NCBI GenBank assembly: GCA_963555985.3
Contig: OY820591.1
Location: forward strand, 640,001-704,000
Direction of reading: 5' to 3'
DNA length: 64,000 nt
From: Dehalococcoidia bacterium
GTDB taxonomy: Bacteria; Chloroflexota; Dehalococcoidia; Bin125
Shown here piece by piece: positions 7,962-41,100 of the stretch (within the stretch, counting starts at the first letter, position 1; each line of letters opens with the position of its first letter). Position numbers and translations under genes: made by a program. The notes beneath the pieces are model-generated. The model ran no database searches. It had not been told where the DNA came from and was given only the letters and a program-made list of their open reading frames with translations.

Positions 7962-7970
7962 GGCGATCGC

Positions 7971-12291: not shown

Positions 12292-12543
12292 CTACTGAAT
12301 GGGATCCGGTTGCTGATTGTTGGAGGCTTGCGCCCAAGCTCTACGCAGTTCGTCATGATGCTGTTTGGCCCAGTCGCGCAGCTGACGCTCATGTCGCTTG
12401 GACAGCCTTCCCTCGATGACCAACAGACTTTCTACCGCTATCTGCACTTCATCTGTACCCACCCGGGCGTGGAAGTGCGGCGGGTTGTGGTCGCCCGCAA
12501 TCATGAAGACCTTGATTGCGCCGACCCGACAGAGCTCAGACAG
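12292..12543 (-). CDS. DUF4160 family protein (possible CTG start)
   Basis: DHNPPHFHARVG, IEGRL...LRDWA; family N-terminus extends to in-frame CTG 12543 (first ATG at 12504). Confidence 0.75.
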   Translation of the reverse strand: MSELCRVGAIKVFMIAGDHNPPHFHARVGTDEVQIAVESLLVIEGRLSKRHERQLRDWAKQHHDELRRAWAQASNNQQPDPIQ

Positions 12544-13147
12544 GGGATGGGCTTCTTTCGTAGAGCTTCATGACCTCTTGCCATGGCAGTCCGGTGACGT
12601 CGATGTACAGCGCATAGCCGCATCGCTCGAGGTCGTCGCCCCAGATGACGTCGCTGCTACCGGCCAAACGAACCGACTCAAAGTACTCGCGATCTTGCCA
12701 TCCTGCGAAGGCAGGACCAGATGCCAAGAAGCTGAGATCGGCGATACCACTCGTCCCATCGGCGAACTCAACCCATATGGAATAACCCTCACGCGGCTCG
12801 ACGGCAACTACGTCTGTCGGACTCGGCCCAGAACTGCGTAGGGACCACTCTGGGTCCCACTCGGGATACAAGTCGTCGACAGATATGCCGGTCAGCCGCG
12901 AGTAGACCTCGTCGGCTGACATCTGGGTCTCGTACTCGACCCAGACCAAATCGCCGTACGGGGCGATCTGGATTCGCTCGAAGTACTCGCGACTCTGCCA
13001 GCGCCGGAAGTAGGGCTGATCGGCCAGGTCCGACAAATCGACGAGTCCGCTCACGCCGTCGTCAAACTCGACCCAGATCGTGAAGCCCTCGCGGGCTTCC
13101 ACCCGGATCGGTGTCTTCCACTCAGGCTCAGGGCCAAGTTCCGACAT
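12536..13147 (-). CDS. Tandem DUF2442 domain protein
   Basis: Two copies of VE.REG..IWVEF.DG.SG..DLS.LA..P.F..WQ.REYFE. Confidence 0.85.
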   Translation of the reverse strand: MSELGPEPEWKTPIRVEAREGFTIWVEFDDGVSGLVDLSDLADQPYFRRWQSREYFERIQIAPYGDLVWVEYETQMSADEVYSRLTGISVDDLYPEWDPEWSLRSSGPSPTDVVAVEPREGYSIWVEFADGTSGIADLSFLASGPAFAGWQDREYFESVRLAGSSDVIWGDDLERCGYALYIDVTGLPWQEVMKLYERSPSPV

Positions 13148-17575: not shown

Positions 17576-18799
17576 ATGAACGGCAGCTACACCGACGCGG
17601 AACTTAGGGCCATGATGGCGGACCTCGAGTCCGAACTCGTGGAGCGCAAGGCGGTGCTCGCCGGAACCGCGCGTGAGCGGATCCGTGAGGCGATCTGCGC
17701 GTTCGCCAACGATGTCCAGGGCCACGATCGCCCGGGTGTCGTCTTTCTGGGCCTTGAGGACGACGGTTCGCCGTCCGGGATGACGATCTCTGAGCCTGTG
17801 CTGCTCACGCTTGCTGACATGAAGACCGACGGCAACATCCTCCCCCAACCGAGCATGTCGGTGAAGAAACACGAATTGCCAGGCGGGGAAGTGGCCTCGA
17901 TCACAGTCTGGCCGTCCGATTCGCCGCCGCTGCGATACGCAGGCCGGATTTGGGTGCGAATCGGCCCCCGTCGCGGACTGGCGAGCGCCCAGGACGAACG
18001 CATCCTCAATGAACGGCGCAGAATGAAGGACGCGCACTACGACATCCTGCCGGTACCCGGTGCGCGGCTCGAAGACTTGAACCTGCGCCGCTTTGAGGAG
18101 GACTATCTCCCCGCTGCCTTCAGTCGCGAGCTGTTGGATGCGAACGATCGTAATCTCGAGCAACGCCTCGCCGCGCTTCGCATGATCGTCTCTCTCCACG
18201 ATCCTCGGCCAACAATGACCGGCTTGTTGGTCTTGGCGGACGATCCGCAGCGCTATCTGCCCGGCGCGTACATCCAATTCCTGCGCATCGGCGGCGAGCA
18301 ACTCACCGATCCAATTCTCGATTCCTCGGTCTGCAAGGGCAATCTCACGGCCTTGACGAAAGAGCTCGGCTTACACCTGCGCGCGCATAACCGCATCGCC
18401 GTGGACATCACCAGCGGGCCGCTCGAACGCAGATATCCCGACTACCCGATGCGAGCCTTGGAAGAGCTCATCAACAACGCCGTCATGCACCGCGCATACG
18501 AGGGCACCAACGCTCCAATTCGCGTGTATTGGTACGACGACCGGATCGAAATCTCCAGTCCCGGTGGTCCCTCGGGCATCATCACCGCCGACAACTTTGG
18601 CCAGCCCGGTCTCGTTGACTATCGCAACCCCAACCTGGCTGAGGCGATGCGAGTCTTGAATCTGGTGCAGCGCTACGGCGTTGGCCTCTTGATCGCCCGT
18701 CAAGAGCTGCACCAGAACGGACAACACGCACCGGAGTTTCACGTAGATGCACGGCAAGTCCGCTGCATCGTCTGGAAGCAGAAACGACCGGACACCTGA
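17576..18799 (+). CDS. AlbA_2 (Schlafen-like) + HATPase_c_4 protein
   Basis: ESELVERK, ICAFAN, EELINNAVMHRAY, RIEISSPGG, YRNPNLA. Confidence 0.88.
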   Translation: MNGSYTDAELRAMMADLESELVERKAVLAGTARERIREAICAFANDVQGHDRPGVVFLGLEDDGSPSGMTISEPVLLTLADMKTDGNILPQPSMSVKKHELPGGEVASITVWPSDSPPLRYAGRIWVRIGPRRGLASAQDERILNERRRMKDAHYDILPVPGARLEDLNLRRFEEDYLPAAFSRELLDANDRNLEQRLAALRMIVSLHDPRPTMTGLLVLADDPQRYLPGAYIQFLRIGGEQLTDPILDSSVCKGNLTALTKELGLHLRAHNRIAVDITSGPLERRYPDYPMRALEELINNAVMHRAYEGTNAPIRVYWYDDRIEISSPGGPSGIITADNFGQPGLVDYRNPNLAEAMRVLNLVQRYGVGLLIARQELHQNGQHAPEFHVDARQVRCIVWKQKRPDT

Positions 18800-19734: not shown

Positions 19735-22176
19735 CTAGTCGCCCCGAGCCGCGAGCGGAATCGTCCCAATCACGTCGTCCACCTCCATCTGATCGATCTC
19801 CGCCTCAGTCAACAAAGTCAGCCGCGCCAGCACCTCGCGCGTATCGCGCCCAAGCGTCGGCGACGGACGATCGACCTCCGGGCCGCTCCAGTTGCCGAAG
19901 CGGTAGGGCTGCAATGGATAGCGCCGAGCGCCCGCATAGGTGTGCTGCTGGGTGATGAAGAAGTCGCGCGCTTGCAGGTGCTGGTCTTCCAACAAGTCGC
20001 GCCCGTCGTAGACCACGCCGGCCGCAATCCGCAATCCCTGCAACTCGCGCATCAACTGCCCGGCGTCGCGCTCGCGCGTCCACTCGGCGATCGCAGCGTC
20101 GATCTCGCTACGGGCCGCGCTGCGCTCGCTGAAAGTGCCGTAGCGCCGGATCCAGTCCTCCCGACCCATCAGCCGCGCCAGATCGGCGAACTGTACGTCG
20201 CTCTCACACGCAATCGCGATCCAGTGATCGTCCTGACAGGGATAGGTGTTGTGCGGCGCGATCCGCGGGTGATAGTTCCCCACCCGCCCCGGATCTTCGC
20301 CCGAGATCGAGTACGCCGTCACCGCTTCGCCCGTGAACGACGTGGCCGTCTCGGTCTGCGAGAGGTCGATATGGCAGCCGCCCGGCTCACCCTGAGCGTT
20401 CAGCCGACGCCGGCGCTCCAACGCCGACAACAAGGCCAGCGCCCCCATGATCCCGGCCAGCGGATCGCCGCCCGTCGTCCCGCTGAAAATCGGCTGGTCG
20501 TCCGCGTAGCCCGTCAGATGCGGCAGCCCCGACATCTGCTCGGTCGTGTTGGCGAACGCCGTGTAGTGCGACCACGTACCGGTCAGCCCGAAACCAGGCA
20601 TCGAGATCATGATCAGCTCGGGATTGATCTCGCGCAGCTCCTCATACGACAGCCCGAAATTCCCCATCACACGAGGCGTGTAGTTCTCCACGAGAATGTC
20701 GGCCTCTTTGACCATGTGGCGAATCACGTCCGCGCCGCGCCGGTCGGTCAGATTGAGCGTGATCCCATGCTTGTTCCGGTTGACCCAGTTGAACTGCGGC
20801 GCCCACTCCCACCAGAACTCCTCGCTCGCGCCGCCCGCCCGCCAGCCGTCAATCCGCTGCACCGACTCCACCTTGATCACGTCCGCCCCCCCATCCGCGA
20901 AGACCAGCGACGTCATCGGCCCCGACATGAACATCGACAGATCAATCACCCGCAGCCCCTCCAGCGGCCTCTCTCCATTACTCCCGCGCCCTCCTCCGTC
21001 ATTCCCGCGCTTGTCGCGGGAATCTCGATCCCTGGCCTCCCACACTCCCGCCCGAACCTCTGCGTCATGCTCCCCCAGCAGCGGAGTCCGACTCCCTAAC
21101 GGCCGCTCCTCCCCGAACATCCACGGAATCCCCGGCATTCGCACATGACCCGCGCGCGGATGCTCAAAGTCAAAAAAGAACGCCCGCTCCCGATGCGGCA
21201 GCAAGTTCATCACATCGGACAACGTCGGAATCAACCCGAACGGAATCCGCCAAGTCTGAGCGTCGTGAAAGACATCCTCCGCCGTCCGAGGACGAGTCAG
21301 ATCGGCCAACTCGTTCGCCAGTTCGCGGGAGTTGGCCGTTCGCGCCCACGGATCGGCAAACAACGGATCCTCGATGAACTCCGGCTTGCCGAAGAACTGG
21401 CAGAGCATCTCCCACTGCGCCTGCGTCAGCACGTTCGCGCCCACATACCCATCGGAGGTGGGCAGTATGAACGACGGCGCCGGCCCGATATCGGCGCCCC
21501 GCACGCCGATCGTGCCGGTGTAGTCGTAACGCTGCACCGGCAGCAGCGCCGCGTTGACCGCCGTCTCCATCACCGACACATCCACATGATCGCCGCGACC
21601 GCGCTCCTGCGCCGCATACACCGCGATCAGCGTCGCCACCGCCGCATACGCCCCGGTCAGCGTCTCCGTCACCGAAGCCCCCAACTGAAGCGGCTCCCGA
21701 TCCGCCCGCCCGCACAGATGCGTAAACCCGCCCAGCGCCCCCGCGATCAGATGGTTCCACTCCCAATCGGCATACGGCCCCACCGACCCAAAACCGCTCA
21801 CAGTCGTCAGCACGACCCGAGGATTCCGCGCCGACAAGTCCCCATAGCCAAGCCCCCGAGCCGCCAGCGATGGCTCGGTCTCATGCGAGATCACCACATC
21901 AGCCTGCTCAAGCAACCGCGCCCGGAGCGCCAGATCGTCAGGGTTCGACGGATCGATCACCACACTGCGCTTCGACGTATTGGCGTACAGGAACGCAGCC
22001 GAAGCCTCGATGTCCTCAGACCCGGCGAACGGACCGCGCCGGCGCGCCGAGTCCCCCTGCGGCGGCTCCAGCTTGATCACGTCCGCGCCCAGATCGCCCA
22101 GCAACTTCGCCGCAAACGGAGCCGCCAGACCCTCCGAGACGTCCAAGACCCTCAGTCCATTCAGCGCCGTGGTCAT
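19735..22176 (-). CDS. Double-domain CaiB/BaiF (class III) CoA-transferase
   Basis: Two L.GLRV.D.S..GADVIK.E domains. Confidence 0.93.
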   Translation of the reverse strand: MTTALNGLRVLDVSEGLAAPFAAKLLGDLGADVIKLEPPQGDSARRRGPFAGSEDIEASAAFLYANTSKRSVVIDPSNPDDLALRARLLEQADVVISHETEPSLAARGLGYGDLSARNPRVVLTTVSGFGSVGPYADWEWNHLIAGALGGFTHLCGRADREPLQLGASVTETLTGAYAAVATLIAVYAAQERGRGDHVDVSVMETAVNAALLPVQRYDYTGTIGVRGADIGPAPSFILPTSDGYVGANVLTQAQWEMLCQFFGKPEFIEDPLFADPWARTANSRELANELADLTRPRTAEDVFHDAQTWRIPFGLIPTLSDVMNLLPHRERAFFFDFEHPRAGHVRMPGIPWMFGEERPLGSRTPLLGEHDAEVRAGVWEARDRDSRDKRGNDGGGRGSNGERPLEGLRVIDLSMFMSGPMTSLVFADGGADVIKVESVQRIDGWRAGGASEEFWWEWAPQFNWVNRNKHGITLNLTDRRGADVIRHMVKEADILVENYTPRVMGNFGLSYEELREINPELIMISMPGFGLTGTWSHYTAFANTTEQMSGLPHLTGYADDQPIFSGTTGGDPLAGIMGALALLSALERRRRLNAQGEPGGCHIDLSQTETATSFTGEAVTAYSISGEDPGRVGNYHPRIAPHNTYPCQDDHWIAIACESDVQFADLARLMGREDWIRRYGTFSERSAARSEIDAAIAEWTRERDAGQLMRELQGLRIAAGVVYDGRDLLEDQHLQARDFFITQQHTYAGARRYPLQPYRFGNWSGPEVDRPSPTLGRDTREVLARLTLLTEAEIDQMEVDDVIGTIPLAARGD
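20997..21024 (+). repeat. CGTC-type REP palindrome inside the CoA-transferase linker
   Basis: CGTCATTCCCGCG-cttgt-CGCGGGAATC. Confidence 0.8.
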
Positions 22177-22307
22177 GTCGCCGCTCCGACCTGCAACTCC
22201 AACCCGTGCAGGGTAATCGTTGTCGATTCCAGTCGAATGGAACTTTCAGTCCCCGCTTCACGCGGGGACCAGCTCGGTCGGTGGGAGCCACTGGCCAACT
22301 CCCAACC

Positions 22308-22544
22308 TCAGCGCCCCGAGCGCTGCTTGTGCATCGGCAACTGCGTCGCCATCCGATGCTCCGGCGATTTGTAGTGCTCGTAGAGCTCTTCGCGCAGCGC
22401 GTCTTCCGCTTCTGAGGAGAACGCCGCCTCGCAAGGATCGCAACTCACCGTCACCGGCCCGGCGTCCGCCGCGACTCCGCGAAAGGCGTCCCGCGCCGTC
22501 CTCCGCGCGAGCTGTTCGTGCAGGCGATTGCGAAAACTTGCCAT
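22308..22544 (-). CDS. Small protein with C2H2-like zinc finger
   Basis: CDPCEAAF...LYEHYKSPEH. Confidence 0.55.
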   Translation of the reverse strand: MASFRNRLHEQLARRTARDAFRGVAADAGPVTVSCDPCEAAFSSEAEDALREELYEHYKSPEHRMATQLPMHKQRSGR

Positions 22545-22560
22545 CCCGTTCCAGCTTTCC

Positions 22561-22660
22561 GAGGCCGTTGCAAACTCCCGTTTCCGTCATTCCTGCGAAC
22601 GCGGGAATCCATCCAGCGCATCGAGTGAGACGTGGATTCTCGCGTTCGCAAGAATCACGA
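22561..22660. repeat. MITE-end plus inverted pair of CGTC-type REPs
   Basis: GAGGCCGTTGCAAA then CGTCATTCCTGCGAACGCGGGAATCC and inverted GGATTCTCGCGTTCGCAAGAATCACG. Confidence 0.75.
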
Positions 22661-22759
22661 AACGCTCAGATCGGGAATCTTGCAAGGCGCTCCTTTCCCA
22701 GAGACACCTAGACTCAGGCCAGCGTACGGCAAGGTCCGAAACAAGGCTTGGAGTTGGGC

Positions 22760-24328
22760 ATGGTCTGGGAACCCGAAGTCGAAGAACTGCGCCATCGCAC
22801 CGAACTCTCCGCACGCGGAGGCACACCCGACCGCATCGCCCGACAGCACCGACTCGGACGCCTCACCGTCCGCGAACGCATCGAGAACCTGCTCGATCCC
22901 GGTTCCTTCCACGAAGTCGGAGCGCTCGCCGGCCTGGGCGAGTACGAAGACGGCGAATTGGCCAACTTCACCCCCGCCTCCTACGTCATGGGCCTCGGCA
23001 AAATCGACGGCCGCACCGTCGCCGTCGGCGGCGAGGACTTCACCATCCAGGGCGGCTCCGCGCTCTTCCCCATGCAGCGCTCCAAAGGCGGACTCGGCGG
23101 ATTCTGCGAAGAGTTGGCGGTCGAATACCGCGTACCCCTGATCCTCCTGATCGACGGCGCCGGCGCCAACGTCGGCGCGACCAAGAAGATGGGCACGACC
23201 TATCTCCCCAACGGCGGTACCAACTTCGTCACCTCAATTGAGGCGATGCGCAACGTGCCCGTGCTGGCGGGCGTCCTGGGCGCAATCGCCGGCGGCCCCT
23301 CCGGTCGCGCCATGATGGTCCACTGGAGCGTGATGACCAAAGGCCGCTCCGCCATGTTCGCCGCCGGCCCGCCGGTCGTGAAGCGCGGCATCGGACACGA
23401 CGTCACCAACGAGTCGCTGGGCGGATCGCAGGTCCACGTCCACACCTCGGGCTGCATCGACAACGAAGCCGAAGACGAACCCGACGCCTTCCGCCAAATC
23501 CGCACGATGCTCTCCTACCTGCCCGACAACGTGAACGAACTCCCGCCCGCCGCGCCCGCCCTCGACGCCCCCGAAGGCGCGGGCGAGCAGCTGATCGACC
23601 TCGTCCCCCGCAACACCCGCCGCCCCTACTCGATGTACAAGCTGATCCGCTCCGTCGTCGACGGCGGCGAGTTCTTCGAGATCAAACCCCATTGGGGCAC
23701 AGCCGTAATCACCGCCTTCGCCCGCATCGACGGACTCCCCATCGGCATCGTCGCCAACAACCCGCTCAAGAACGGCGGCGCGCTCGATCGCGACGGCTCT
23801 GACAAGCAGACTCACTTCCTCGAGCTCTGCAACTACTTCCACATCCCCATCGTCTACCTGGTCGACGTGCCCGGCTTCATGATCGGCGAGCAGGCCGAGC
23901 GCGAGGGCACCCTCCGCTCCGGCATGAGAGCCGTCTGGGTCGGCCTCCAGGCGACCGTGCCGCAACTCACCATCGTGATCCGCAAGTGCTACGGCATGGC
24001 CGGCATGGCCACCGGCAACCCCCGCCGCCTCAACTACCGCCTCGGCTGGCCCTCGGGCGAGTGGGGCAGCATCCCCATCGAAGGCGGCGTCGACGCCGCC
24101 TACCGCCGCGAAATCGCCAACGCCCCCGACCCCGCCGCCAAGCGAGACGAAATCGAAGCCGACCTCCGCAAGCTCCGCAACGTCTTCCGAACCGCCGAAA
24201 CCTTCGGCATCGAAGAAATCATCGACCCCCGCCAAACCCGAACCTACCTCCAACAATTCGTCGAACGAGCCTACAAAGTCCTCCCCTACGAACTCGAATC
24301 CAAACCCCTCCACGGAGTCCGCCCCTAA
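22760..24328 (+). CDS. Acyl-CoA carboxylase carboxyltransferase subunit
   Basis: GRLTVRERI, DFTIQGGS, LVDVPGFMIG, EIIDPRQTR. Confidence 0.93.
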   Translation: MVWEPEVEELRHRTELSARGGTPDRIARQHRLGRLTVRERIENLLDPGSFHEVGALAGLGEYEDGELANFTPASYVMGLGKIDGRTVAVGGEDFTIQGGSALFPMQRSKGGLGGFCEELAVEYRVPLILLIDGAGANVGATKKMGTTYLPNGGTNFVTSIEAMRNVPVLAGVLGAIAGGPSGRAMMVHWSVMTKGRSAMFAAGPPVVKRGIGHDVTNESLGGSQVHVHTSGCIDNEAEDEPDAFRQIRTMLSYLPDNVNELPPAAPALDAPEGAGEQLIDLVPRNTRRPYSMYKLIRSVVDGGEFFEIKPHWGTAVITAFARIDGLPIGIVANNPLKNGGALDRDGSDKQTHFLELCNYFHIPIVYLVDVPGFMIGEQAEREGTLRSGMRAVWVGLQATVPQLTIVIRKCYGMAGMATGNPRRLNYRLGWPSGEWGSIPIEGGVDAAYRREIANAPDPAAKRDEIEADLRKLRNVFRTAETFGIEEIIDPRQTRTYLQQFVERAYKVLPYELESKPLHGVRP

Positions 24329-24363
24329 ACCAAGAGCCAACCCCCTCCCCCCTCCCCCTTGAA

Positions 24364-24655
24364 GAGACCTGCGCGTAAATCCCCAATTCCGTCATTCCCG
24401 CGAACGCGGGAATCCATGCAGCGTCTCGAATGGCATCCGGACTCCCGCCTGCGGAGACCGTTGCGAAATCCCCACCTCCGTCATCCCCGCCCCAACAAGT
24501 TCCGTCATCCCCGCCCCAACAAACTCCGTCATACCCGCGCCCCGTCGCGGGTATCTCGCCGTGACCAGCACCCAACCCCCAAACCCCACCTCCCCTCTCC
24601 CCCCCTCCGCGGGGGGAGATGTCGCGTAGCGACAGAGGGGGGGACTCCCCAACCC
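24364..24655 (+). repeat. Mosaic repeat cluster (MITE ends, CGTC REPs, 24-bp tandem units, family B)
   Basis: GAGACCTGCGCG end, REP 24390-24415, CCGTCATCCCCGCCCCAACAA x2, REP 24526-24556, family B 24594-24643. Confidence 0.85.
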
Positions 24656-24750
24656 TCAGTCAACCACGACACACCCCCAAATTACCCACCCGAACACCCA
24701 TCCATATAAGATCAAGTGTCCTTCATTGAGCAAGAGAGGAACCCGGACCC

Positions 24751-25113
24751 ATGCCCTTCAACTACACCTACCAGTCCGCCATGAACGGCGTCGGCGAGCT
24801 CGCCTTCTGCAAGCGCGAACCCGGCTACGTCCGCGCCCAAGCCTTCGCCATCCTGCGCCGCGAACTCTCCCCGGCCAACCCCAAGAGCCGCGAGATCCAC
24901 CACGCGCTCGGCATCGAACCCCACCCCGAGCCCGCGCCCCGCCCCAACCACTCTCACCTGCCCGAAGCGCCGCTCACCCCCGAGCAGCAGAAGGACTTCC
25001 ACCTCAACCCGATCTTCCAAGTCTACGACGAGGTGATGGCGCTCGTGCACGGGGACGACGTCCCCTTCGGCGAAGACGAAGAAAGCACGGAGGAAGAGGA
25101 TGAGCCTCAGTAA
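24751..25113 (+). CDS. Small protein upstream of terminase (putative terminase small subunit-like)
   Basis: GAGAGGA RBS; overlaps terL start; paralog at 37618-37833 shares RELSPANPKSREI. Confidence 0.7.
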   Translation: MPFNYTYQSAMNGVGELAFCKREPGYVRAQAFAILRRELSPANPKSREIHHALGIEPHPEPAPRPNHSHLPEAPLTPEQQKDFHLNPIFQVYDEVMALVHGDDVPFGEDEESTEEEDEPQ

Positions 25114-26518
25114 TACCCCTGCCTCGAAGCGGTTGAACCGAGCGTTCGACCGCTTCCACGACGCCCGCGATTTTTTTCCGACGGACAGACAGCGCGAGCT
25201 CTATAGCGCAGTCGCTACCGTGCCTAACCCCGGCCTCGCTCTGGTCGGGTACGGCGGCGCCATGGGCGGCGGCAAGACGCGAGCGCTGGTCGAACTCGCG
25301 ATCGACGCCGCCTTGTTCTACCCGGGCAACGACATCCTGATCGGGCGAGACGCCTACACCAATCTCGCCACCACCACGATGCGCGAGTTTGACCGCCATT
25401 GTCCGTCGGAACTGGTTGTCGCCCGACGACAGAGCCCGACCCATTCCGCCGCCCTGCGAATGCCGCACTGGCCCGACGGGGTCGTCTCCACCGTCCACTT
25501 CCGCCACCTCTCCGACTGGACCGGCCTCGGCTCCCAGCAGTACGGCACCGTGCTGATCGACGAAGCCGGCGAAGTGGCCGAAGAAGCCGCCCAGATGCTG
25601 CTCACTCGCCTCAGACACCCGGCCCAGCCCCAGCGCTGGTTCGTGGCCGCCTCCAACCCCCACCCGGGCTGGTTCGAGCGCTGGTTCGTCCAACGCGAAC
25701 TGAACAAAGCTGAACTGGAGCACGCCGGCGGACAAGCCCGCTTCATCCCCGCCAAGATCGAGGACAACCCCCACCTGCCCGACAACTACGCCGAGCAGCA
25801 GCGCGCCCTGCTCCCGCCCGATTGGGTCGAACGCTTCATCGAAGGCCGCTTCGACGCCTTCGAGGGCCTGGTCTACCCCAAGTTCAACCCCAAACTGCAC
25901 CTCTGGGATAAGCGCCTGCCCAGCTTCGAGCGCTACCTCGGCGGCCTCGACTTCGGCGCTCAGACCGAACAAGCCCACTACACCGCCGGCATCGTCGCCG
26001 GCCTCACTACCCGCTACGCCGTCTGCGGACCCAACGTCTTGATCCGCCTGGCCGAGTTCGAGGACAGAGGCCCCGGCGTCACCCAGCGGCTCGAACAGTG
26101 GATGCTCCAGTGCCGCCGGCGCTTCGGCTCAATCAGTTGGAACGCCGACCGCACACAGTCCGCCTGGATCGATCACCTTCACCGCCGCGGGCGCGACATC
26201 CGCCCCAGCCGGGGCGGGCCCGGCTCCGTCCACCAGGGCATCGGCCTCGTGCAAGAACGCCTTTCGAGCGACCCGCCGACCTCCTTCTACACCCCCGAGC
26301 TCGTCCAGTTCCCGCGCCGCATGAGGGAGTACCAGTGGCGAGACCCCCGCGCCGCCAACCCCCAACCCCGGGACCGCGACGACGACCTCCTCGACGCCGA
26401 CCGCTACTGCCACGAGCTGGCCCAACCCCAACTCGAACCGCCAACCACCCGGATCGAGTTCTTCCACCTCCCGCCGCTCGACCGCGGCCGCATCGCCAGC
26501 ATGAGAAATCAGCTCTAA
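25100..26518 (+). CDS. Phage-type terminase large subunit
   Basis: Walker A YGGAMGGGKT, Walker B VLIDEA, motif III ASNP, DNPHLP..Y, nuclease GGLDFG and DDLLDADRY. Confidence 0.9.
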   Translation: MSLSNTPASKRLNRAFDRFHDARDFFPTDRQRELYSAVATVPNPGLALVGYGGAMGGGKTRALVELAIDAALFYPGNDILIGRDAYTNLATTTMREFDRHCPSELVVARRQSPTHSAALRMPHWPDGVVSTVHFRHLSDWTGLGSQQYGTVLIDEAGEVAEEAAQMLLTRLRHPAQPQRWFVAASNPHPGWFERWFVQRELNKAELEHAGGQARFIPAKIEDNPHLPDNYAEQQRALLPPDWVERFIEGRFDAFEGLVYPKFNPKLHLWDKRLPSFERYLGGLDFGAQTEQAHYTAGIVAGLTTRYAVCGPNVLIRLAEFEDRGPGVTQRLEQWMLQCRRRFGSISWNADRTQSAWIDHLHRRGRDIRPSRGGPGSVHQGIGLVQERLSSDPPTSFYTPELVQFPRRMREYQWRDPRAANPQPRDRDDDLLDADRYCHELAQPQLEPPTTRIEFFHLPPLDRGRIASMRNQL

Positions 26519-26537
26519 CCCATGCCCACCCACAATG

Positions 26538-26719
26538 CCGTCATCCCCGCCCCCAAGAATCTCCCCCTCAAGGGGGAGATGCCCCAACGGGGCAGAGGGG
26601 GTGAAACGCCACCCCCAGCACAAACGCCCCCAACCAACCTCCCCTCTCCCCCCCCTCTGCGGAGCCTGTCCCCGCGCACGCGGGGAGGGAGATGCCGCGC
26701 AGGCGGGGGACAGAGGGGG
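26538..26719 (+). repeat. Repeat cluster: truncated CGTC unit and two family B double hairpins
   Basis: CTCCCCCTCAAGGGGGAGATGCCCCAACGGGGCAGAGGGGG and a longer variant. Confidence 0.75.
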
Positions 26720-26764
26720 TCCGCCCACCCCCACCCCCTACGCTGAACCCAAAAGGAAGCGCCC

Positions 26765-27922
26765 ATGAGCATCGAACTCTCCGAAGCCCAACGCCTGCTC
26801 CGAGACACCGTCCGCGCCTTCGCCAACGACCACATCGACCCCATCGCCGACGACATCGACCGCCACGACCGCTGGCCCGATCACCTCTGGCCGATGCTCG
26901 GCGAACTCGGCCTGCTCGGCGTCACCATCGACGAGCGCTACGGCGGCTCCGACGCCGGACTCCTGGCCGGCGTCATCGCCACCGAGGAAATCGCCCGCGC
27001 CAGCGCCTCCATCGCCCTCTCCTACGGCGCCCACGCCAACCTCTGCGCCAACAACATCCACAGCAACGGCAACGAAGCCCAAAAACAGCGCTACCTGCCC
27101 GGCCTCTGTAGCGGCGAACAGGTCGGCGCGCTCGCTCTCACCGAACCCGAAGCCGGCTCCGACGCCGTCGGCATCCGCACCACCGCCGTCCGCGACGGCG
27201 ACGTCTACCGCCTCAACGGCTCCAAAATGTTCATCACCAACGGCTCCGTCGCCGACACCCTCGTGCTCTACGCCAAAACCGACCCCGACGCCGGCTCGCG
27301 CGGCATCACCGCCTTCATCGTCGAATCCTCCTTCGAAGGCTTCAGCGTCGGCCAACACCTCGACAAGGTCGGACACCGTGGCTCCCCAACCGCCGAACTG
27401 ATCCTCGACGACTGCATCGTCCCCGCCGAAAACATCCTCCGCGCAGAGGGGCGCGGCGCAGGCGTAATGATGCAGGGACTCGCCGTCGAACGCGCCTTCC
27501 TCGCCGGAGAACCCCTCGGCATCGCCCAGGCCGCCCTCGATACCGCCGTCGAATACGCCCGCCAACGACGCCAGTTCGGACAGCGCATCGGCGACTTCCA
27601 ACTCATCCAGGCCATGCTCGCCGACATGTACACCGAACTCGAAGCCGCCCGCTGGCTCGTCTACCGCACCGCCCACATCGTCGAACAAGCCGCCGCTCGC
27701 GGCGAGCGCAGCAACAAAGAAGCCGCCGCCGCCATCCTCTACTCCGCCGAAATGTCCTCCCGCGTCGCCGACAAAGCCGTCCAAATCCACGGCGGCTACG
27801 GCTACATGTCCGAAAGCCGCGTCGCACGCTACGTCAGAGACGCCAAACTCCTCGAAATCGGCGCCGGCACCAGCGAAATCCGACGCCTCCTCATCGGCCG
27901 CGAACTCATCGGCCCAGAGTAA
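26765..27922 (+). CDS. Acyl-CoA dehydrogenase (isovaleryl-CoA DH-like)
   Basis: LSYGAHANLC, ALTEPEAGSD, GSKMFITNG, RDAKLLEIGAGTSEIRR. Confidence 0.95.
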   Translation: MSIELSEAQRLLRDTVRAFANDHIDPIADDIDRHDRWPDHLWPMLGELGLLGVTIDERYGGSDAGLLAGVIATEEIARASASIALSYGAHANLCANNIHSNGNEAQKQRYLPGLCSGEQVGALALTEPEAGSDAVGIRTTAVRDGDVYRLNGSKMFITNGSVADTLVLYAKTDPDAGSRGITAFIVESSFEGFSVGQHLDKVGHRGSPTAELILDDCIVPAENILRAEGRGAGVMMQGLAVERAFLAGEPLGIAQAALDTAVEYARQRRQFGQRIGDFQLIQAMLADMYTELEAARWLVYRTAHIVEQAAARGERSNKEAAAAILYSAEMSSRVADKAVQIHGGYGYMSESRVARYVRDAKLLEIGAGTSEIRRLLIGRELIGPE

Positions 27923-27954
27923 GAACACGGGGGCAGGCCGCCAGAAAACATCGA

Positions 27955-27983
27955 TTGACAATCGCGAACGAAAACGGCAAGAT
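27955..27983 (+). promoter_or_regulatory. Sigma70-type promoter with no downstream sense CDS
   Basis: TTGACA-17 nt-CAAGAT; same architecture as 63171-63199. Confidence 0.55.
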
Positions 27984-27989
27984 GAGCGA

Positions 27990-28117
27990 CGAGGGCCGAC
28001 GCCTGCGCAGCGGGAATTGGTCCCGTCGCTGGAGGCGGCGAACGCAGGCTCCGTGTCGCGCCGCTGAGACCAAAGGGGCTCGAAGGTCAGCTTCTGCCAT
28101 TGCGGGGGCTGGCCTTC
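27990..28117 (+). ncRNA. Candidate structured RNA at the 3' end of DUF3800
   Basis: Nested stems GCCTGCG/CGCAGGC, CAGCG/CGCTG, GGGA/TCCC; hairpin GAAGGTCAGC/GCTGGCCTTC at 28082-28117. Confidence 0.4.
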
Positions 28118-28129
28118 ACTCTCCCACCA

Positions 28130-28858
28130 TCACAGGTTGATCAGGCCCCAGCGACCGTCAAGTCCGTTTGGATCCGGGTGCAGCTTCGAAGAAATGATCC
28201 GCCAGTCTTCATGATCAACCTTGCCGAGTATGTGCCTCCCGATCGGACTCACCACGAGGTCTGCGAGTTCAAGCCCAGCGATGCGATCTCCCTTGTTGTG
28301 GAGCTCGATGCGGGATATTCGTCGCCGAATCGTCAATGCGCGTCGATCCTCTATCCCCTCCTTGCGTATACGCCCCCATTCTCGCTCCAAACCTGCGTCA
28401 AGAACCGGATCTCGACGCTCCACCACGACCCGTCCTCCATGAATACGCGGACCAATCACATCACAGAAGCGATCAATAAGGCGCTGAAAACAAATGTGAT
28501 ACACATCTCCCTGCCATTCTGCGGACATATCTGCTCGGCCGCTCTTGCTCACTGTGCAAGCCAAAACAGTGTATTCAAGACTATGCATCAACCGATTGAG
28601 ATCCTCGAAGGCTTGAGCGCGTCGCCCTGGATGACGCAGTGACCGAAATGCGCCCCGAGCACGAACGAGGTCCGCGCTATGCAGCGTGAAGTCGGTACGC
28701 CCGCAGTGTTCACTCTTGAACTGTCTGATCGCAGCAGCCACCGTCGTTGCCGCGTACTGCTCCTCCATCACCACTCCACCCAGCACAAAAACTGGGTACT
28801 GCGGATCGATCTTGACCAAATTGTGATCCCCCGACTCATCCAGGTAGAGAACGCGCAT
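28130..28858 (-). CDS. DUF3800 family protein
   Basis: LYLDESGDH, PVFVLGG, LHSADL, GLELADLV; lower GC. Confidence 0.9.
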   Translation of the reverse strand: MRVLYLDESGDHNLVKIDPQYPVFVLGGVVMEEQYAATTVAAAIRQFKSEHCGRTDFTLHSADLVRARGAFRSLRHPGRRAQAFEDLNRLMHSLEYTVLACTVSKSGRADMSAEWQGDVYHICFQRLIDRFCDVIGPRIHGGRVVVERRDPVLDAGLEREWGRIRKEGIEDRRALTIRRRISRIELHNKGDRIAGLELADLVVSPIGRHILGKVDHEDWRIISSKLHPDPNGLDGRWGLINL

Positions 28859-28867
28859 CTGCTGATC

Positions 28868-29395
28868 TCACCCCAGCAAGATCCGAACCCCCTGCTCATA
28901 CCCGTCCAGCGCACGAGCGCACAATTCCTCATCGCTCGCGCTCCCAATCGGATGATCCACCAACGCATACCGAAAATCCGCCAACCCCAGCGTCTTCGCA
29001 ATCATCCGCCCCGTCGGATCAAACGGATGCGTACACAGCACCAGGCTCGGCTTCCCGCTCTGCTCGAAGGTAATCCCGTCATGCACACTGCACGTCGAAC
29101 ACGAGCCTCAATCGCCCACCGCCGTAATCAGAAAGTCAACGTCGTTCGCGATCCGCTCCAACACCTGCGGCTCCGCGATCCGGCTCGCATTCAGCTTGCC
29201 CGTATCGACCACGACTTCGCACTCATGCCGTCGCACAAACTCCTCCGCCGTGAAGCGAAGCAGTCGGTCGGCGTTCACCTTCGCATTCGAGAACAGCCCA
29301 ATCCGCAAACCGCTGAGCGTCTCCAAACGCGGTGCGTGGCGAAAGCCCGTCGCAGCCGGCTCGCCGGTGGGGTCAAAGAGTTCGAGCGGCATCAA
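28868..29395 (-). CDS. UGSC-family selenoprotein (in-frame UGA at 29108-29110)
   Basis: Two ORF-track ORFs join in frame: TAVGD-U-GSCSTCSVHDG...G.PS; SECIS-like hairpin 3' of UGA. Confidence 0.88.
29075..29099 (-). promoter_or_regulatory. Putative bacterial SECIS hairpin
   Basis: UUCG-A-CGUGCA-GUG-UGCAUG-A-CGGG, apical G 20 nt after the UGA. Confidence 0.55.
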
Positions 29396-35546: not shown

Positions 35547-37100
35547 TCAGATGCATGTCGGCCAACTGGCCAACTCCTTCGTTTCACCTCGTCTGGGAGG
35601 CGTCACCGGGAACCGCTGCACCGCCTCCAGCAACCAACTGCGCGTATCCGCCGGATCAATGATCTCATCCAGATTCATGATGCCGGCGGCGCCCCATGGC
35701 TCATGGCCCAAAGTCCATTCAGCGATCAGGCGCTGACGTTCGGCGTCGGGGTCGGCAGCGTTGGCAATGTCTCGCGCGTGCACGACGTTGACGCCGACGC
35801 CTGGGTCCATGAACGAGATCTCCGCCCCCGGCCAGGCGGTGACCAGGGAGTTATCCATGCTGTTGCCCGAGAGCGAGAAGTAGGCCAGCCCGAATGCTTT
35901 GCGCAGCACGACGGTCATGCGCGGGACGGTCATCAGCGCAAGCGCCTCCATGAACATGATCGCTTTATGCAGCAGCCGCGCATGTTCGGGCTGAGAGCCG
36001 ACGATGAAGCCGGGCACGTCCTGCAACCAGATCGTGGGGATGTTGAAGGCCTCGCACATGCAGACGAACTGCGTGCCCTTGTCGCAGGTGTTGGGGTCGA
36101 GCGCGCCGGCGTTGAACATCGGATTGCTGGCGAGAATGCCGACCGTCTGTCCGCCGATCCGCGCAAGCGCCGTGATCAAACTGCGACCGAAACGCGGCTT
36201 GAGTTCAAGCATCTCTCCGTCATCGACCAGCCGCGTGATCACGCGGTGCATGTCGTAGGCGCGCTGACGGCGAGTGGGTACGAGGTTGGCAATGGCCGGA
36301 TCGTGCTCGGCGTAGTCGTAGCCCGCGCGGATTGGAGGCGTTTCCCAACAGTTGGAGGGCATGTAGGAGAGGAACGACTTGATCTGCTCGATCGCTTCGT
36401 CTTCCGTGTCCGCCGATACGTCGATCTGGCCCGTGAGGTCCAGATGGATGTCGACGCCGCCGAGCTCCTGCAATGTGATCAGCTCGCCGGTGGCGATCTC
36501 GATCACACGCGGCGAAGAGACGTTGAGCGCCGAGCCTCGTACCTGGACGGTGAAGTCGGAATAGGCGCTGTGGAAGCTGGAACCGCCAAAGGACTCGCCC
36601 ACGATGGCGGTGGCCATCGGAATCCGCCGCCGCCGCCGGGCGGACTCGATGCCCGGCGGGATCTTGCTGAAACCTTCAGAGCCAAGAGCGTCGGGCAAGC
36701 GCGCGCCGCCGGTCTCGCCGAAGTAGACGTACGGCACGCCCTGCTTGAGCGCCTGCTCGTAGATCCGCTTCATCCGCTTGCCGCCCACGACCGAGGAGGA
36801 GCCATGCAGCACGGTCACGTCGTCGCCGCAGCCGGTGGCGGGCCGGCCGTCGATTTTGCCCCAACCGCCAATCTTGCCGTCGCCGGGCGTACGGTCGCGG
36901 ACATCGGGGACCTCGGAGAAGGCAAAGGTGCCGATCTCGCGGAAGCTGCCGGGGTCGAAGAGCTTGTCAAGCCGCTCGCGGATCGTCATCCGCCCCTTCG
37001 CGTGCTGGCGAGCGATCCGCTCGGGCGAACCCATCTCGGAGACGATCTTCTGCCGCCGCATGAGGAGGTCTTCACGGATCGCTTGGGGTGACAGTGGCAT
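35547..37100 (-). CDS. Acyl-CoA carboxylase carboxyltransferase subunit
   Basis: GRMTIRERL, LQDVPGFIVG, DEIIDPADTR. Confidence 0.93.
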   Translation of the reverse strand: MPLSPQAIREDLLMRRQKIVSEMGSPERIARQHAKGRMTIRERLDKLFDPGSFREIGTFAFSEVPDVRDRTPGDGKIGGWGKIDGRPATGCGDDVTVLHGSSSVVGGKRMKRIYEQALKQGVPYVYFGETGGARLPDALGSEGFSKIPPGIESARRRRRIPMATAIVGESFGGSSFHSAYSDFTVQVRGSALNVSSPRVIEIATGELITLQELGGVDIHLDLTGQIDVSADTEDEAIEQIKSFLSYMPSNCWETPPIRAGYDYAEHDPAIANLVPTRRQRAYDMHRVITRLVDDGEMLELKPRFGRSLITALARIGGQTVGILASNPMFNAGALDPNTCDKGTQFVCMCEAFNIPTIWLQDVPGFIVGSQPEHARLLHKAIMFMEALALMTVPRMTVVLRKAFGLAYFSLSGNSMDNSLVTAWPGAEISFMDPGVGVNVVHARDIANAADPDAERQRLIAEWTLGHEPWGAAGIMNLDEIIDPADTRSWLLEAVQRFPVTPPRRGETKELASWPTCI

Positions 37101-37468: not shown

Positions 37469-37632
37469 GAGGCCTTTGCGAAAGCCCAGCTTGTGCGGCT
37501 AATGCCTTGGAGGAGCGGATCGCGCGATGGGAGGTCGGTGGTACGACCAGATTGGGAGTGACTTCACACTTGGTTGCTTCGAGATTCCCGCCTGCGCGGG
37601 AATGACGGAAACGGGAGTTATGCATCGGTCTC
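37469..37632. mobile_element. 164-bp MITE (copy 1)
   Basis: Imperfect TIRs GAGGCCTTTGCGAAA / rc GAGACCGATGCATAA; ~110-bp interior shared with 62490-62652; internal REP. Confidence 0.75.
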
Positions 37633-37833
37633 CGCGAGCGGAGCTTCGGGGAACTTGGTGGGGGGTTCGAGGCCGAGGACGTGGCGGATCTCTCTGCTCT
37701 TGGGGTTGGCGGGGGAGAGTTCTCGGAGCAGGGTGTTGAGCGCGTTGACGCGGGTGTAGGCGTGTTCGTTGGAGTTGGCGATCTGGGCGACTTCGGTCAT
37801 GACGTCGCGGTAGCTGTAGGGGAAGGGAGTCAT
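37618..37833 (-). CDS. Paralog of 24751 small protein, truncated by MITE
   Basis: PF.Y.Y...M..V...A...RELSPANPKSREI.H.LG.EP..PEAPL; last codons and TAA lie in the MITE end; GAAAGGA RBS. Confidence 0.7.
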   Translation of the reverse strand: MTPFPYSYRDVMTEVAQIANSNEHAYTRVNALNTLLRELSPANPKSREIRHVLGLEPPTKFPEAPLAETDA

Positions 37834-38163: not shown

Positions 38164-41100
38164 CTACGGTAGCTGGATTTGGATCGTCTCGCTTGTGGCG
38201 GTTCGTAAGAGCCAGGCTTCCGAGACTGTGATTCCGACTGAATGCAGCATCTGTGCATAGGTTTGGAGTTGGGCTTCGTAGCCGCGCAGACGGTCTGCTC
38301 GAAGCTCATGATCCGACTTGTAATCGACCAGTACCCAGCGATCGGACTTGCGGAACAACAGATCGGCGATCCCTTCGGTGATGGTCGTAGTGTCCGTGTC
38401 GTCACTCTGAATTGTTGTCAGCGGCAGTTCTCGATGGACTTCGTCGGCGCTTCGGGCTCGTTCTATGAGTTCGCTCGCCAGCGCTCGTCGCACATGCGCC
38501 AGCACTTCGTGCGGGGGGATTCCATGCGCTGCGCAGATCCGCCGCGTTCGCTCTTCCGTGAGCGCGTGGTCGTCGAAATGGGCAAGCTCCATCGCGGCGT
38601 GGATTGCGGTACCAATGGCCAGCGGGTCAGAGCGCGGCGGCAGGCCGGCATCGCTTTCGTCTAGCTCTTCGCCGGGTGACTCTCTTGTCCACTTCGCAAG
38701 ATCGTCGGCGAGACCGGAGGGTGTTCGAGCCACCGTGCGCGGATCACCCTTGACGAGTGCATCTTCGCGGAGTCGGCGCCACTGCTGAGTCAACTCCGCA
38801 TGAGCAACCGGCGCCTCAGACTGCGGCGGGGCATGAATCGCGTCGAACTGTTCGGGTGCGAATACCTGAATCGCTGGATCCGCGCCTCGCAATTGCCAGC
38901 CGGGAGCGGCTTCATCGAGGAAACCGCGGAAGCTATCGCTGTTGCCCATCGTCTGCGCCTGGAAGGAGGTCAGGATCAGCCAATCCCGCGCCCGCGTGCA
39001 GGCGACGTAGAGCATCCGCCGCGCTTCCGCGTCGGCGTAGGCTTCATCTCGGCGTTCTGCTTCGCCGATGCCGGGCGTCGCAAACTGCGTGTCTCGTCCC
39101 AGCCGATAGGCGGCCCGCCCGTTGGGCCGATCGACGATGAAGCGAGTCCCGCCGAAGGGCCGATCGGACAGCTTGGGCAGGATCACGATCGGAAACTCCA
39201 GTCCCTTCGCCTGGTGGATCGTGAGGATGCGAACCGCGTCGTCGTCGGCCTCGCTGGTTGGCGACTCCGATTCGGGCAAGTTCCGGCCTTGGCGCTGCGA
39301 GAGCCAACGGACGAAGGGCCGGAGAGTGTCGGCCTCGCTGTTCGCAAAGTCACTGGCGCGCTGTACCAACATCCGTAGGTTTGCCTGTCGCTCGGCGCTG
39401 TCTGCGCCGCTCAGCATCTGCGCCTCCAGCAAGCCGGACCGCCGAATCACATGCTCGACGATCTGCGGCAGCGGCAGATCACGCACTGAGATGCGCAGAT
39501 GGGCAAGTTCCTCGATCCGGTCGCGGAGCCGGCCGTCGTACGCGGATGGGATCGTTACAGGATCCAGCAGCAACGCAGCGCGCGAACGCTGATCGGCATG
39601 AACGAATTCGAACAGTTCCTGATCGGAAGCCGCGACCAGCGGCGACTTGAGCACGGCGAGCGCCGCCACCTCGTCGGTGGGATCGTCAAGAGCCTGCAAA
39701 AGATGCGCCGCCGCCCGGATTTCGGGCCGCTGGTAGAACCCCTGGCCGCTATCGAAGTGGTAGGGAATCCCCGCGTTATTGAGAGCATCGGTGTAGTGCG
39801 AGATGCCGGTTCGGGTGCGGATCAGGATGGCGATCTCGCGCAGTGCGGGCGGCCGTGCCGCGTCATCGCTTGAGATCCGGCCCAACTCTGAACGTCCTTC
39901 GATGAGATGTGCGATCAAGCGAGCAGTCAGCTCGCCCTCGTCTTTTCGCGCCGCATCAACGCGCGGATATTCCGACCGAGAGACGATGCTCACCACGCCG
40001 CCGCCGCTGTCTTGGCGGTGTGGTTCGATTGGCTGGAACGACGCTTGCGCGCGTGGATACGCAGGGTCGCTGCTGAGCACTGCGCTCAGGCTGCGATTCT
40101 GCCAGTCGGCCAGATTTGGGCGTGCGCGGAAGTTGACGCGCAGCCGCTCGATCGCGGCGGTTCCGGGCGCTGTCTCACTCGCGCGACGGAAGAGCTCTCG
40201 AACCTCTTCGTAGGTGTCGATATCCGCGCGCCGGAATCGGTAGACGGACTGCTTGGGATCACCGACTAGCACGAGCCGTCCCGGTCCGGGCTCAGCCTCG
40301 CGCCAGTTCGCCGTGTCTTCACGTGCGGTGAGCAAGAGTACGATCTCCGCCTGGAGCGGGTCCGTGTCCTGAAACTCGTCCACAAGGATGCTGTCGAAGC
40401 GCTTCCGAAGCGCTCTGCGGGCTCCGGGATGTTGCACCAGTAGATCGCGAGCTTCGAGCAGGAGGTCGTCATAGCTCAGGACGCCTTGCTGCCGCCGTTG
40501 GGCAGCGTCTTCGATGACGAGCTCTCGCAGTGCAGCGGTGAGCTCGGCCAAGGTGTTGTCACGGATTCGGCTGAGCAGCCCGTCGCGCCAATCGCGCAGG
40601 GCAAACCAGCGCTCACGGATCGCTGCGCGATCCGGATTATGGGCCGCGGGCGCGCCGCGAACATCGAGCGCTGCCAATCGCGGCCCAAGTTCATTCGGCT
40701 CGGTCTCACGGCAACGCCGGAGATGGGCAAGGATTCGCTCGGCTGCACTGGAATTCGAGGGCGAGTGACGACGGCAGGCAGCGACGATCTTCTCAGCTTC
40801 CTGCTCAGCGCGTTCGAGTTCATCATCGAGATTCGTCGGTTCTTCGCTTGCCGGAACCGGATCGAGATCGCGGTTGCGGGTCATGTGCTCAGCGGCGGCC
40901 TGGAGGTCTTGCAACTCGAGACCGAGACTGAGCGCGCGCTGAATCGCCGTCTGCGCTGATGCGCCGGCGTCGGACCAGAGCCACGCTCGCCAGGACTGCC
41001 GGAAGCGCAAGTCGGTCTGAAGCTGATCGAGCACGCGAAAGTTCGGATCGAGGCGGGCGTCGAGCGCGCACTCGCGCAGGAGCATCGCGGCAAAGGCGTG

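Follow-up and report, generated by a model that had tools for sequence, protein, structure and literature searches.

How does a complete DNA-packaging motor of the viral type come to lie among the metabolic genes of a bacterial chromosome, and what keeps it there? This question is raised by a locus in a Dehalococcoidia bacterium of the phylum Chloroflexota (NCBI GenBank assembly GCA_963555985.3, contig OY820591.1, positions 640,001 to 704,000 of the forward strand; this whole stretch of 64,000 nucleotides is referred to here as the window). Terminases are regarded as a hallmark of tailed viruses, and prophages and viral contigs are identified by them. In the window, a large terminase gene (TerL), together with a small gene that runs into it, is found between the genes of a carboxyltransferase and an acyl-CoA dehydrogenase (ACAD). 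An earlier note, made from the letters of the window alone, described the pair as a stand-alone terminase module, for which a dispersed gene transfer agent (GTA), a packaging-interference defence and a repurposed ATPase-nuclease were considered. The best reading of the present data is that the pair is copy A of a phage-derived, terminase-only cassette, which consists of a leader, a small terminase (TerS) without the helix-turn-helix (HTH) domain and a complete TerL, and that this cassette, a discrete unit of about 1.9-2.3 kb, maintains itself and increases in number within the chromosomes of a single lineage of Dehalococcoidia.

The word stand-alone did not survive a search of the whole genome (G000; 3.33 Mb in 11 contigs, 96.4% complete, 7.5% contamination). 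A six-frame comparison recovered five TerL genes of full length without internal stops (100, 89, 89, 88, and 87% identity) as well as N-terminal stubs, and tblastn detected 28 copies of the small gene (47-100% identity), one of which is truncated and lies within the window. The other 27 copies are intact, start with ATG and encode 108-126 amino acids. Five small-gene copies precede a full TerL, two (S10 and S19) precede stubs of 87 and 66 amino acids, and most of the others are solo. The pair therefore belongs to a multi-copy, self-inserting unit with about 20 small-gene-only derivatives, a feature that the earlier note had overlooked.

Alignment of the five full copies (A to E) revealed a shared DNA block of 1.9-2.36 kb, with identities of 87-90% between copy A and the rest and of 94-97% among copies B-E. 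The block begins about 100 nt before the ATG of the small gene and ends about 12 nt past the TerL stop codon, and outside these ends the copies have differing arrangements of REP-like (repetitive extragenic palindrome-like) sequences. The leader is common to all five TerL copies, occurs in a diverged version in the solo units, and carries a GGA-rich ribosome-binding stretch ahead of the ATG. The 17 solo units that were measured are 549-572 nt long and pairwise 83-95% identical, and each is composed of the conserved leader, the open reading frame (ORF) and a tail of about 110 nt. This tail corresponds in alignments to TerL codons 1 to ~43, and its endpoint is the same base in all copies. Since several residues of that TerL stretch (R23, F25, P27, T28, R30, and Q31) are conserved as protein across the family, the solo units derive from the full cassette and not the reverse. 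The alternative that solo units keep the right end of the cassette was rejected, as local alignment of their tails against shuffled sequences gave p values of 0.20-0.59 in four of four cases. Two observations were made beside these copies. The small gene of copy B has a tRNA-Met gene (L002 3514-3589) about 250 nt upstream, and none was found near copies C, D, and E. Positions 12029-12382 of contig C9 repeat at high identity the purQ/purL locus with the solo unit at C1 421721; this is probably a strain variant, consistent with the contamination figure, and the C9 unit was excluded from the solo identity statistics.

The cassette and the solo units are discrete insertions into spacers of 22-130 nt that are empty in related genera. 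In the relative G018, 2.26 kb with the leader, small gene and TerL separate the stop codon of an Rdx-family gene from the ATG of a UGSC gene; the spacer between these two genes in G000 measures 22 nt. Conversely, the spacer that holds solo unit S05 upstream of purQ is 882 nt long in G000 against 82-133 nt in four relatives from three genera (in a fifth, the left flank did not align), and that of S20 upstream of ndk is 1062 nt long against 22-37 nt in two relatives with both flanks aligned. No terminal inverted repeats or target duplications were seen at the junctions read, where comparison between genera could hide short duplications. Logan contigs of four sequencing runs yielded only short unitigs, with joints that have sides of <37 nt and link REP-like repeats, and showed neither an empty site nor an excision.

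Synteny, examined for copy A, S10, copy C, S05, and S20, further placed the unit at rearrangement breakpoints. Orthologues of the carboxyltransferase gene next to copy A (88-93% identical) occur in five relatives, and in none of them is the ACAD gene downstream; the idea that ACAD is its ancestral neighbour was thus rejected, as no relative has that adjacency. In G013, G007, and G006, the genes that follow the carboxyltransferase correspond to C1:760182-768845 of G000, a segment that starts right after copy S10, and the ACAD orthologue adjoins the orthologue of C1:2031854-2034055, which lies 0.9 kb upstream of copy C. These two mappings indicate that two ancestral adjacencies were split in G000 and that a cassette copy sits at each end examined. 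Likewise, the cassette locus of genus g7 is flanked by a DUF885 gene and a CoA-transferase gene, whose counterparts in G000 lie beside copy D and beside S10. Judging from gene order, the simplest reading is that recombination between dispersed copies made these breakpoints.

The next downstream gene is co-oriented with the unit in 25 of the 28 copies (binomial p 2.7e-5 against 0.5, with our own, crude gene calls), and upstream genes are mixed; the truncated copy in the window is upstream of, and co-oriented with, a second carboxyltransferase gene (35550-37100). As insertions in front of housekeeping genes such as purQ and ndk, the units may provide upstream signals to these genes or change existing ones. 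Promoter-like hexamers were read by eye in the solo-type leader and were not recovered by a consensus scan; a promoter and terminator scan of 24300-26800 returned 0 sites.

Both genes of the cassette are coding and under purifying selection. Among TerL copies, the pairwise ratio of nonsynonymous to synonymous substitution rates (dN/dS) is 0.10-0.28 at a dS of 0.12-0.31. For the small gene, summed dN over summed dS is 0.49 across all 345 usable pairs, 0.41 for the TerL-type and 0.32 for the solo-type copies, its variable sites are distributed over the codon positions as 34/16/58 of 118 each, and its indels come in multiples of three. Between TerL-type and solo-type genes, the ratio for the N-terminal 55 codons is near 1.

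The identity of TerL is supported by several profiles. Pfam Terminase_3 matches it at E 2.5e-6 (27.6 bits, cut-off 23.2), Terminase_6N is also above its cut-off, and the PHROG match is phrog_2, "terminase large subunit" (E 5.8e-23). The NCBIfam equivalog of the PBSX family, TIGR01547, gives 41.4 bits, below its cut-off of 105.05, and the protein is only a distant relative of PBSX-family TerL. The nuclease half aligns to the solved TerL 5oe8 (E 7.8e-12) at the D..D..D positions. In all 47 aligned family members, the Walker A motif G50-K59, the Walker B residues D154/E155 and the nuclease acids D284, D350, and D428/D429/D432/D434 are invariant. Cultured phages are distant: in 110 records, the best rows reach 23-28.5% identity and none covers 80% of the protein. 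Some family members have N-terminal extensions (595-732 aa). In one paralogue lineage (e.g., G006:C4:98622-100136 and G018:C1:3458729-3460189), the TerL match is split into residues ~1-304 and ~311-467 within one open frame, which indicates that some tens of residues have been inserted where the nuclease domain begins.

The small protein was more difficult to place. The one in the window has no direct match in Pfam, PHROG, NCBIfam or PADLOC. Small ORFs lie upstream of TerL at 7 of 12 loci of relatives, and a motif expression of our own found them at 45 of 74 loci fetched from species genomes; this expression is crude, missing the alignable L147 and L151 and probably matching L138 by chance. 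These proteins are too diverged for tblastn with the window protein to reach the relatives' ORFs, and a word-based search with the window type retrieved seven clusters, all from its own genome. An alignment of 32 small proteins nevertheless has a shared N-terminal region of two helices (..P.T...h..h..A..GP.YVR..A...L.R..GLF), and 25 of the 45 ORFs end in an acidic tail closing with (D/E)P(P/Q/L/H), that of the window protein being DEPQ.

Out of 1.84 billion cluster representatives, a profile of this small family matched 93, of which 41 had E <= 1e-10. Five hits (P0206, P0211, P0213, P0214, and P0215) were selected for a match located deep within the protein; each of them is a phrog_51 small terminase (E 1e-3 to 2e-31), and the matched part is its C-terminal half. 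Five further hits were scanned alongside, of which one resembled a small terminase weakly and the other four lacked a PHROG. Other comparisons point the same way at lower significance. Among PDB sequences, the top match is again a small terminase (21di_E, residues 60-113 of the chain, E 0.078), and hhalign to the TerS of the viral contig L033 gave 48.6% probability over the same motif. Foldseek with the model of the small protein found nothing at E <= 0.001 in PDB or BFVD, with small terminases among the weak rows at BFVD ranks 1 and 2 (E 0.6 and 1.2) and PDB rank 8, and BLASTP of a relative's small protein against a viral TerS produced no alignment. In the AlphaFold model, helices 7-19, 25-39, and 46-52 are confident (block pLDDT, the predicted local distance difference test, 84-94), and the remainder is mostly disordered, with a proline-rich linker, a helix at 89-99 and the acidic tail (mean pLDDT 70.3). 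The homology starts at about residue 3 of the 120-aa protein, and in the TerS hits it starts only at residues 56-136, past their N-terminal domain. Based on these comparisons, the small protein is a small-terminase core without the N-terminal HTH DNA-binding domain.

Modelling supports the binding of this protein to TerL. The predicted complex scored 0.62 and the best control 0.00; as a rough guide, given the use of our own alignments, 58 of 80 solved complexes and 2 of 110 mismatched pairs attained this mark. Model runs share at least 35% of contacts, with a partner pLDDT of at least 53. The predicted contacts join residues 86-101 of the small protein to residues 11-23, 72-73, 102-105, and 121-122 of TerL in its N-terminal ATPase region, and the helix segment concerned occurs in several alternative versions among the 27 intact copies.

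The distribution of the family is narrow and its origin is viral. A word-based search retrieved 219 proteins at E <= 0.001 among 8000 scored candidates; named members are "phage terminase large subunit" or hypothetical proteins of Chloroflexota metagenome-assembled genomes (MAGs), many on contigs of 2-5 Mb. Seventy-three of the 74 loci in species genomes are titled as Dehalococcoidia, Chloroflexota or Chloroflexi MAGs. The remaining locus (L088) is a 2.5-kb contig binned as Gammaproteobacteria, probably a binning error. Several of the isolate labels seem to resemble those given to bins from sponge microbiomes. Within the order of the window's genome, 45 of 65 species genomes have the gene (E <= 1e-40), namely 34 of 37 in genus g7, 8 of 9 in g8, 2 of 2 in g3, and the window's own genus, against 0 of 16 in six other genera. 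Other families of the class lack it in all 16 genomes searched, and on this sampling the family is confined to one Dehalococcoidia order. Several genomes have 3-4 full copies, N-terminal stubs with intact small genes recur, and in the relatives tested the small gene is single-copy beside TerL. Synteny is kept within g8 (3 loci) and within g7 (3 loci). Beside some relatives' cassettes, an HNH endonuclease ORF (L020 6414-6686) or GmrSD-type restriction genes (L021 10319-11542 and L030 11047-12834) were observed.

In a TerL tree of 65 rows hand-chosen from the hits, the chromosomal genes form one clade (Shimodaira-Hasegawa-like approximate likelihood ratio support, SH-aLRT, 96), the five G000 copies form one sub-clade (100), and g7 has at least three paralogue lineages. 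The sister group of the chromosomal clade, on long branches, consists of the viral contigs L032 and L033, which were found by an alignment-based scan after a scan with the single protein had returned no match. On both contigs, a full TerS (phrog_51, E 1e-23 and 6e-30) overlaps TerL (47 and 44% identity), and the ORFs that come next, about 700 aa in length, have no PHROG match. The closest viral contigs have a G + C fraction (GC) of 0.65-0.67.

No shell genes accompany the chromosomal cassette as far as searched, that is, with three Pfam families and four viral contigs in the genome of the above completeness. Phage_portal and SPP1_portal had no genome match, and Phage_capsid had one of 18.7 bits, under the cut-off of 24.2 bits. 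When the ORFs of at least 100 aa from viral contigs L032-L035 were compared with the genome, TerL (with antisense frames) alone matched, plus one unrelated ORF. At 12 of 12 relatives' loci there were no structural genes within about 5 kb, and the neighbours were metabolic, transport or defence-type genes. Searches for a known defence or transposition function were equally empty: PADLOC 2.0 returned no family for the five proteins tried, including TerL, the window small protein and two relatives' small proteins, no transposase Pfam domain was found in the cassette, and Y1_Tnp was absent from the genome, other transposase families having had no genome-wide search. No chromosomal multi-copy terminase-only cassette was described in the literature listings and abstract openings consulted.

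What, then, does the cassette do? The account that we favour, tentatively and with rather more doubt than belief, is a packaging cassette that works with the capsids of infecting phages, either by hijacking their packaging or as a packaging origin of the kind used in lateral transduction. The small protein and TerL would form a working terminase without a shell of its own, which would act on procapsids from infecting phages of a related lineage. With the cassette or its vicinity as the starting point, packaging of chromosomal DNA would proceed as lateral transduction does from a pac site in the chromosome, and would carry the cassette and adjacent host DNA to other cells while taking capsids from the phage. 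The many solo copies might supply extra TerS that binds TerL and is blind to DNA, and that tunes this reaction or competes in it. This account is favoured because motor and nuclease are fully conserved, the partner is of the TerS type, the closest relatives are found in phages of similar GC, and a terminase has, to our knowledge, no use without a portal.

Several points weigh against capsid use. It is based on inference, without an observed helper phage, particle, packaged DNA or defined pac site. A small protein that has lost the usual DNA-binding domain leaves site-specific initiation unexplained, and capsid use does not explain integration at new loci. Solved complexes of small and large terminases exist, so likeness to them may explain part of the modelling score. 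The pair is single-copy and syntenic in most g8 species, a pattern that suits a retained host gene better than an element that spreads. Among the defence families of PADLOC, none matches. The absence of shell genes by family search is weak evidence, as portal and capsid of this phage lineage are unseen by PHROGs even on its viral contigs, and the check with the lineage's own ORFs by tblastn was limited to the four contigs.

A second account, which we regard as unlikely, is a kept host defence or addiction module, in which TerL would be a restrained ATP-dependent nuclease, either toxin-like or triggered by phage, and the acidic small protein its inhibitor or regulator, with the solo genes as orphan inhibitors or as dominant-negative TerS decoys that poison phage rings. 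The retention of the pair throughout most species genomes of three genera, with synteny within genera and purifying selection, fits such a module. So does its architecture: the upstream gene is small and evolves fast, it overlaps a larger nuclease gene, and its product has an acidic, disordered tail and is modelled in contact with TerL. Small genes are retained after loss of TerL, here and at L150, L151, L156, and L157, and g7 has several paralogue lineages per genome. However, none of the five proteins has a PADLOC match, the pair is missing from 6 of the 10 genera of the order, and the solo units, which have conserved DNA in leader and tail and have entered new spacers, indicate a mobile unit and not just a gene family. 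Whatever its role, the earlier note is borne out in part: selection, the invariant residues and the chromosomal setting of the nearest relatives support a retained, functional, phage-derived ATPase-nuclease, and the complex model points to a partner.

A terminase-powered transposon, a shade less likely again in our judgement, would account for the mobility directly. With the small protein as guide, the RNase-H-fold nuclease and the ATPase of TerL would cut the cassette and move or copy it; the solo units would be non-autonomous derivatives that the five full copies mobilise in trans. The unit is discrete and multi-copy with sharp ends and lineage-specific insertions into short spacers, its full and short classes resemble autonomous and non-autonomous pairs, its catalytic residues are kept in all copies, and TerL is the only enzyme encoded, no transposase or integrase having been found in the window nor a Y1 transposase in the genome by Pfam. 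But the junctions read have no terminal inverted repeats or target duplications, and the solo units end at what is internal codon ~43 of TerL and lack the right end of the cassette. Non-autonomous elements normally lose coding capacity, yet all small ORFs except one are intact. Strand-transfer chemistry is also unaccounted for, and we know of no terminase that performs it.

Very improbable is the dispersed GTA-like system of the earlier note, with capsid, portal and tail genes elsewhere in the genome. GTAs with split loci are known, and the terminase is intact and conserved without phage neighbours; at the completeness of this genome, a few genes could also be missing. Yet no portal was matched, the capsid match stays under its cut-off, the viral-contig ORFs other than TerL find nothing related, the relatives' loci have no structural genes nearby, and five terminase copies make little sense for one GTA. 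Decaying prophage remnants, for which the phage nature of TerL and the truncated stubs might speak, are scarcely credible in view of five intact copies with the same sharp ends and no other phage gene, the low dN/dS, the invariant catalytic residues, the distance from cultured phages and nearest relatives that are chromosomal among metabolic genes. The decaying relic that the earlier note had named as grounds for refutation is contradicted by these data.

The features at and around the pair are collected in Table 1.

Table 1. Positions of the terminase pair, the parts of cassette copy A and the adjoining features, counted from the first nucleotide of the window.
Feature	Position	Strand	Remarks
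Carboxyltransferase gene, neighbour	22748-24328		Pfam
Left REP-like cluster	24377-24655	+	Variable between cassette copies
REP hairpin unit, left cluster	24377-24453		
Two 24-nt tandem half-sites, left cluster	24477-24524		
Second REP hairpin, left cluster	about 24525-24568		
G/C-rich REP of another type, left cluster	24574-24655		
Conserved leader	24655-24750	+	About 95-105 nt; from alignments of copies
Small gene	24751-25113	+	120 aa; ORF call
TerL (large terminase) gene	25100-26518	+	472 aa; start within the final small-gene codons; intact motifs of ATPase and RNase-H-like nuclease
Right end of shared cassette	26519-26535	+	Copy C diverges about 12 nt past the TerL stop
Right REP-like cluster	26537-26735	+	Families same as left; in copies A, B, D, and E, not C
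ACAD gene, neighbour	26765-27922		Pfam
Truncated small-gene copy	37618-37833	-	71-aa ORF; 47% identity over residues 2-75

The immediate description of the locus in the earlier note was borne out by ORF, Pfam, PHROG and alignment data. The two ORFs overlap by 14 nt, the motifs of TerL are intact and the neighbours are metabolic genes. The GC of the pair is 0.655 against 0.58-0.68 over the window, and the codon log-odds score of TerL is within the range of its neighbours, the 62 ORFs of the window having been called by a codon log-odds model trained on G000. No Pfam domain of portal, capsid, tail, integrase or transposase was found among these ORFs. A tRNA scan of the window detected no gene, and an Rfam scan of 22000-29000 returned 0 families.

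Repeats do flank the pair on both sides, as had been stated, and in this respect the note was right. They are not specific to the locus: the REP-like cores near the cassette belong to generic intergenic families found genome-wide, three of them with 292, 142, and 153 genome matches, and the left cluster is probably outside the core unit. The G/C-rich REP of that cluster, of about 85 nt, lies between the hairpin REP and the leader in copies A and D, is missing in B and C, and has CCCAAC on both sides; it looks like an independent insertion of a small element with a possible 6-nt duplication. In four public runs, the summed contig depth of the stretch 24340-24573 was 1e4-8e4 against about 5-250 for the flanking genes, which indicates that the repeat cores are shared by many loci, and probably by many organisms, in those samples.

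Other genes of the window are of some interest on their own. A DUF3800 gene (28130-28858, minus strand) lies just downstream of ACAD in a stretch of lower GC (0.61), and with a low codon score of 14.3 for 242 aa it may be foreign. Genes of defence or addiction type are dispersed over the window (7233-8402, 12295-13147, 17576-18796, 38167-44519, and 56123-57995), including DUF433 with PIN_10, DUF4160 with DUF2442, a Schlafen AlbA_2/HATPase_c_4 protein, an AddAB-like helicase-nuclease pair, and an N6_N4 methylase adjoining an Mrr-type endonuclease.

The significance of the cassette lies first in what it implies for terminases. A terminase pair has been long-lived without a virus, being kept under purifying selection in more than half of the species genomes of an order, inserted at new sites and found at rearrangement breakpoints, and virus detection that relies on terminases will report prophages in these genomes where there are none. 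Should the cassette use foreign capsids, it would be the smallest satellite-like element so far and would give an uncultured lineage a built-in route for transferring chromosomal genes; should it be self-moving, it would represent a new type of enzyme for transposition. That it constitutes a new class of mobile element with a viral terminase as the only enzyme, either self-moving, with the HTH-less TerS and TerL together excising or copying the cassette and placing it in intergenic spacers, or with each copy (some 5-28) serving as a chromosomal packaging origin for transfer in phage capsids, seems possible to us, though on the doubtful side; if true, a packaging motor would have been freed from its virus to live as an autonomous genetic element. 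The cassette has traits of known kinds (phage-derived packaging modules, satellites and insertion sequence-like repeats), and there is a real chance that it is categorically new.

Among known systems, the headful-packaging terminase of the Terminase_3 or PBSX-like kind is the closest in its genes. The order of small then large gene with overlapping stop and start, the Walker A and B motifs with the three-acid nuclease site of TerL, the match of the small protein to the oligomerisation or C-terminal half of phrog_51, and the C-terminal helix modelled on the ATPase region of TerL are all in common. The cassette differs in having no portal, capsid or other phage gene adjacent or, as searched, in the genome, in a TerS without the N-terminal HTH, and in being chromosomal, multi-copy and inherited with the host within genera. 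In type II toxin-antitoxin systems, a small, fast-evolving upstream gene with a disordered acidic C-terminus likewise overlaps a nuclease gene, and orphan small genes occur; the "toxin" of the cassette would, in contrast, be a 472-aa phage-derived motor nuclease, and it has no PADLOC match.

Phage-inducible chromosomal islands (PICI) and related satellites, as outlined in one report, redirect packaging and depend on the capsids of another phage (10.1101/2022.09.14.508007), and in lateral transduction from chromosomal pac sites, packaging in situ moves adjacent chromosomal DNA, according to another (PMC8575950). The cassette resembles PICI-like satellites in being chromosomal and in carrying genes for packaging specificity, its dependence on a helper being presumed. 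It differs from them in its size of 2 kb and two genes, without integrase, repressor, replication module or attachment (att) sites, and in bringing a TerL of its own plus a putatively DNA-blind TerS in many copies, with a helper that is likewise only presumed. With pairs of insertion sequences and miniature inverted-repeat transposable elements, and with REP-associated elements, the cassette shares its discrete, dispersed, multi-copy and intergenic nature, its long and short classes, and its location at rearrangement breakpoints and beside REP clusters. Unlike such pairs, it has no known transposase family, neither inverted terminal repeats nor target duplications were seen, and its short class keeps an intact, selected ORF while lacking the right end of the long class.

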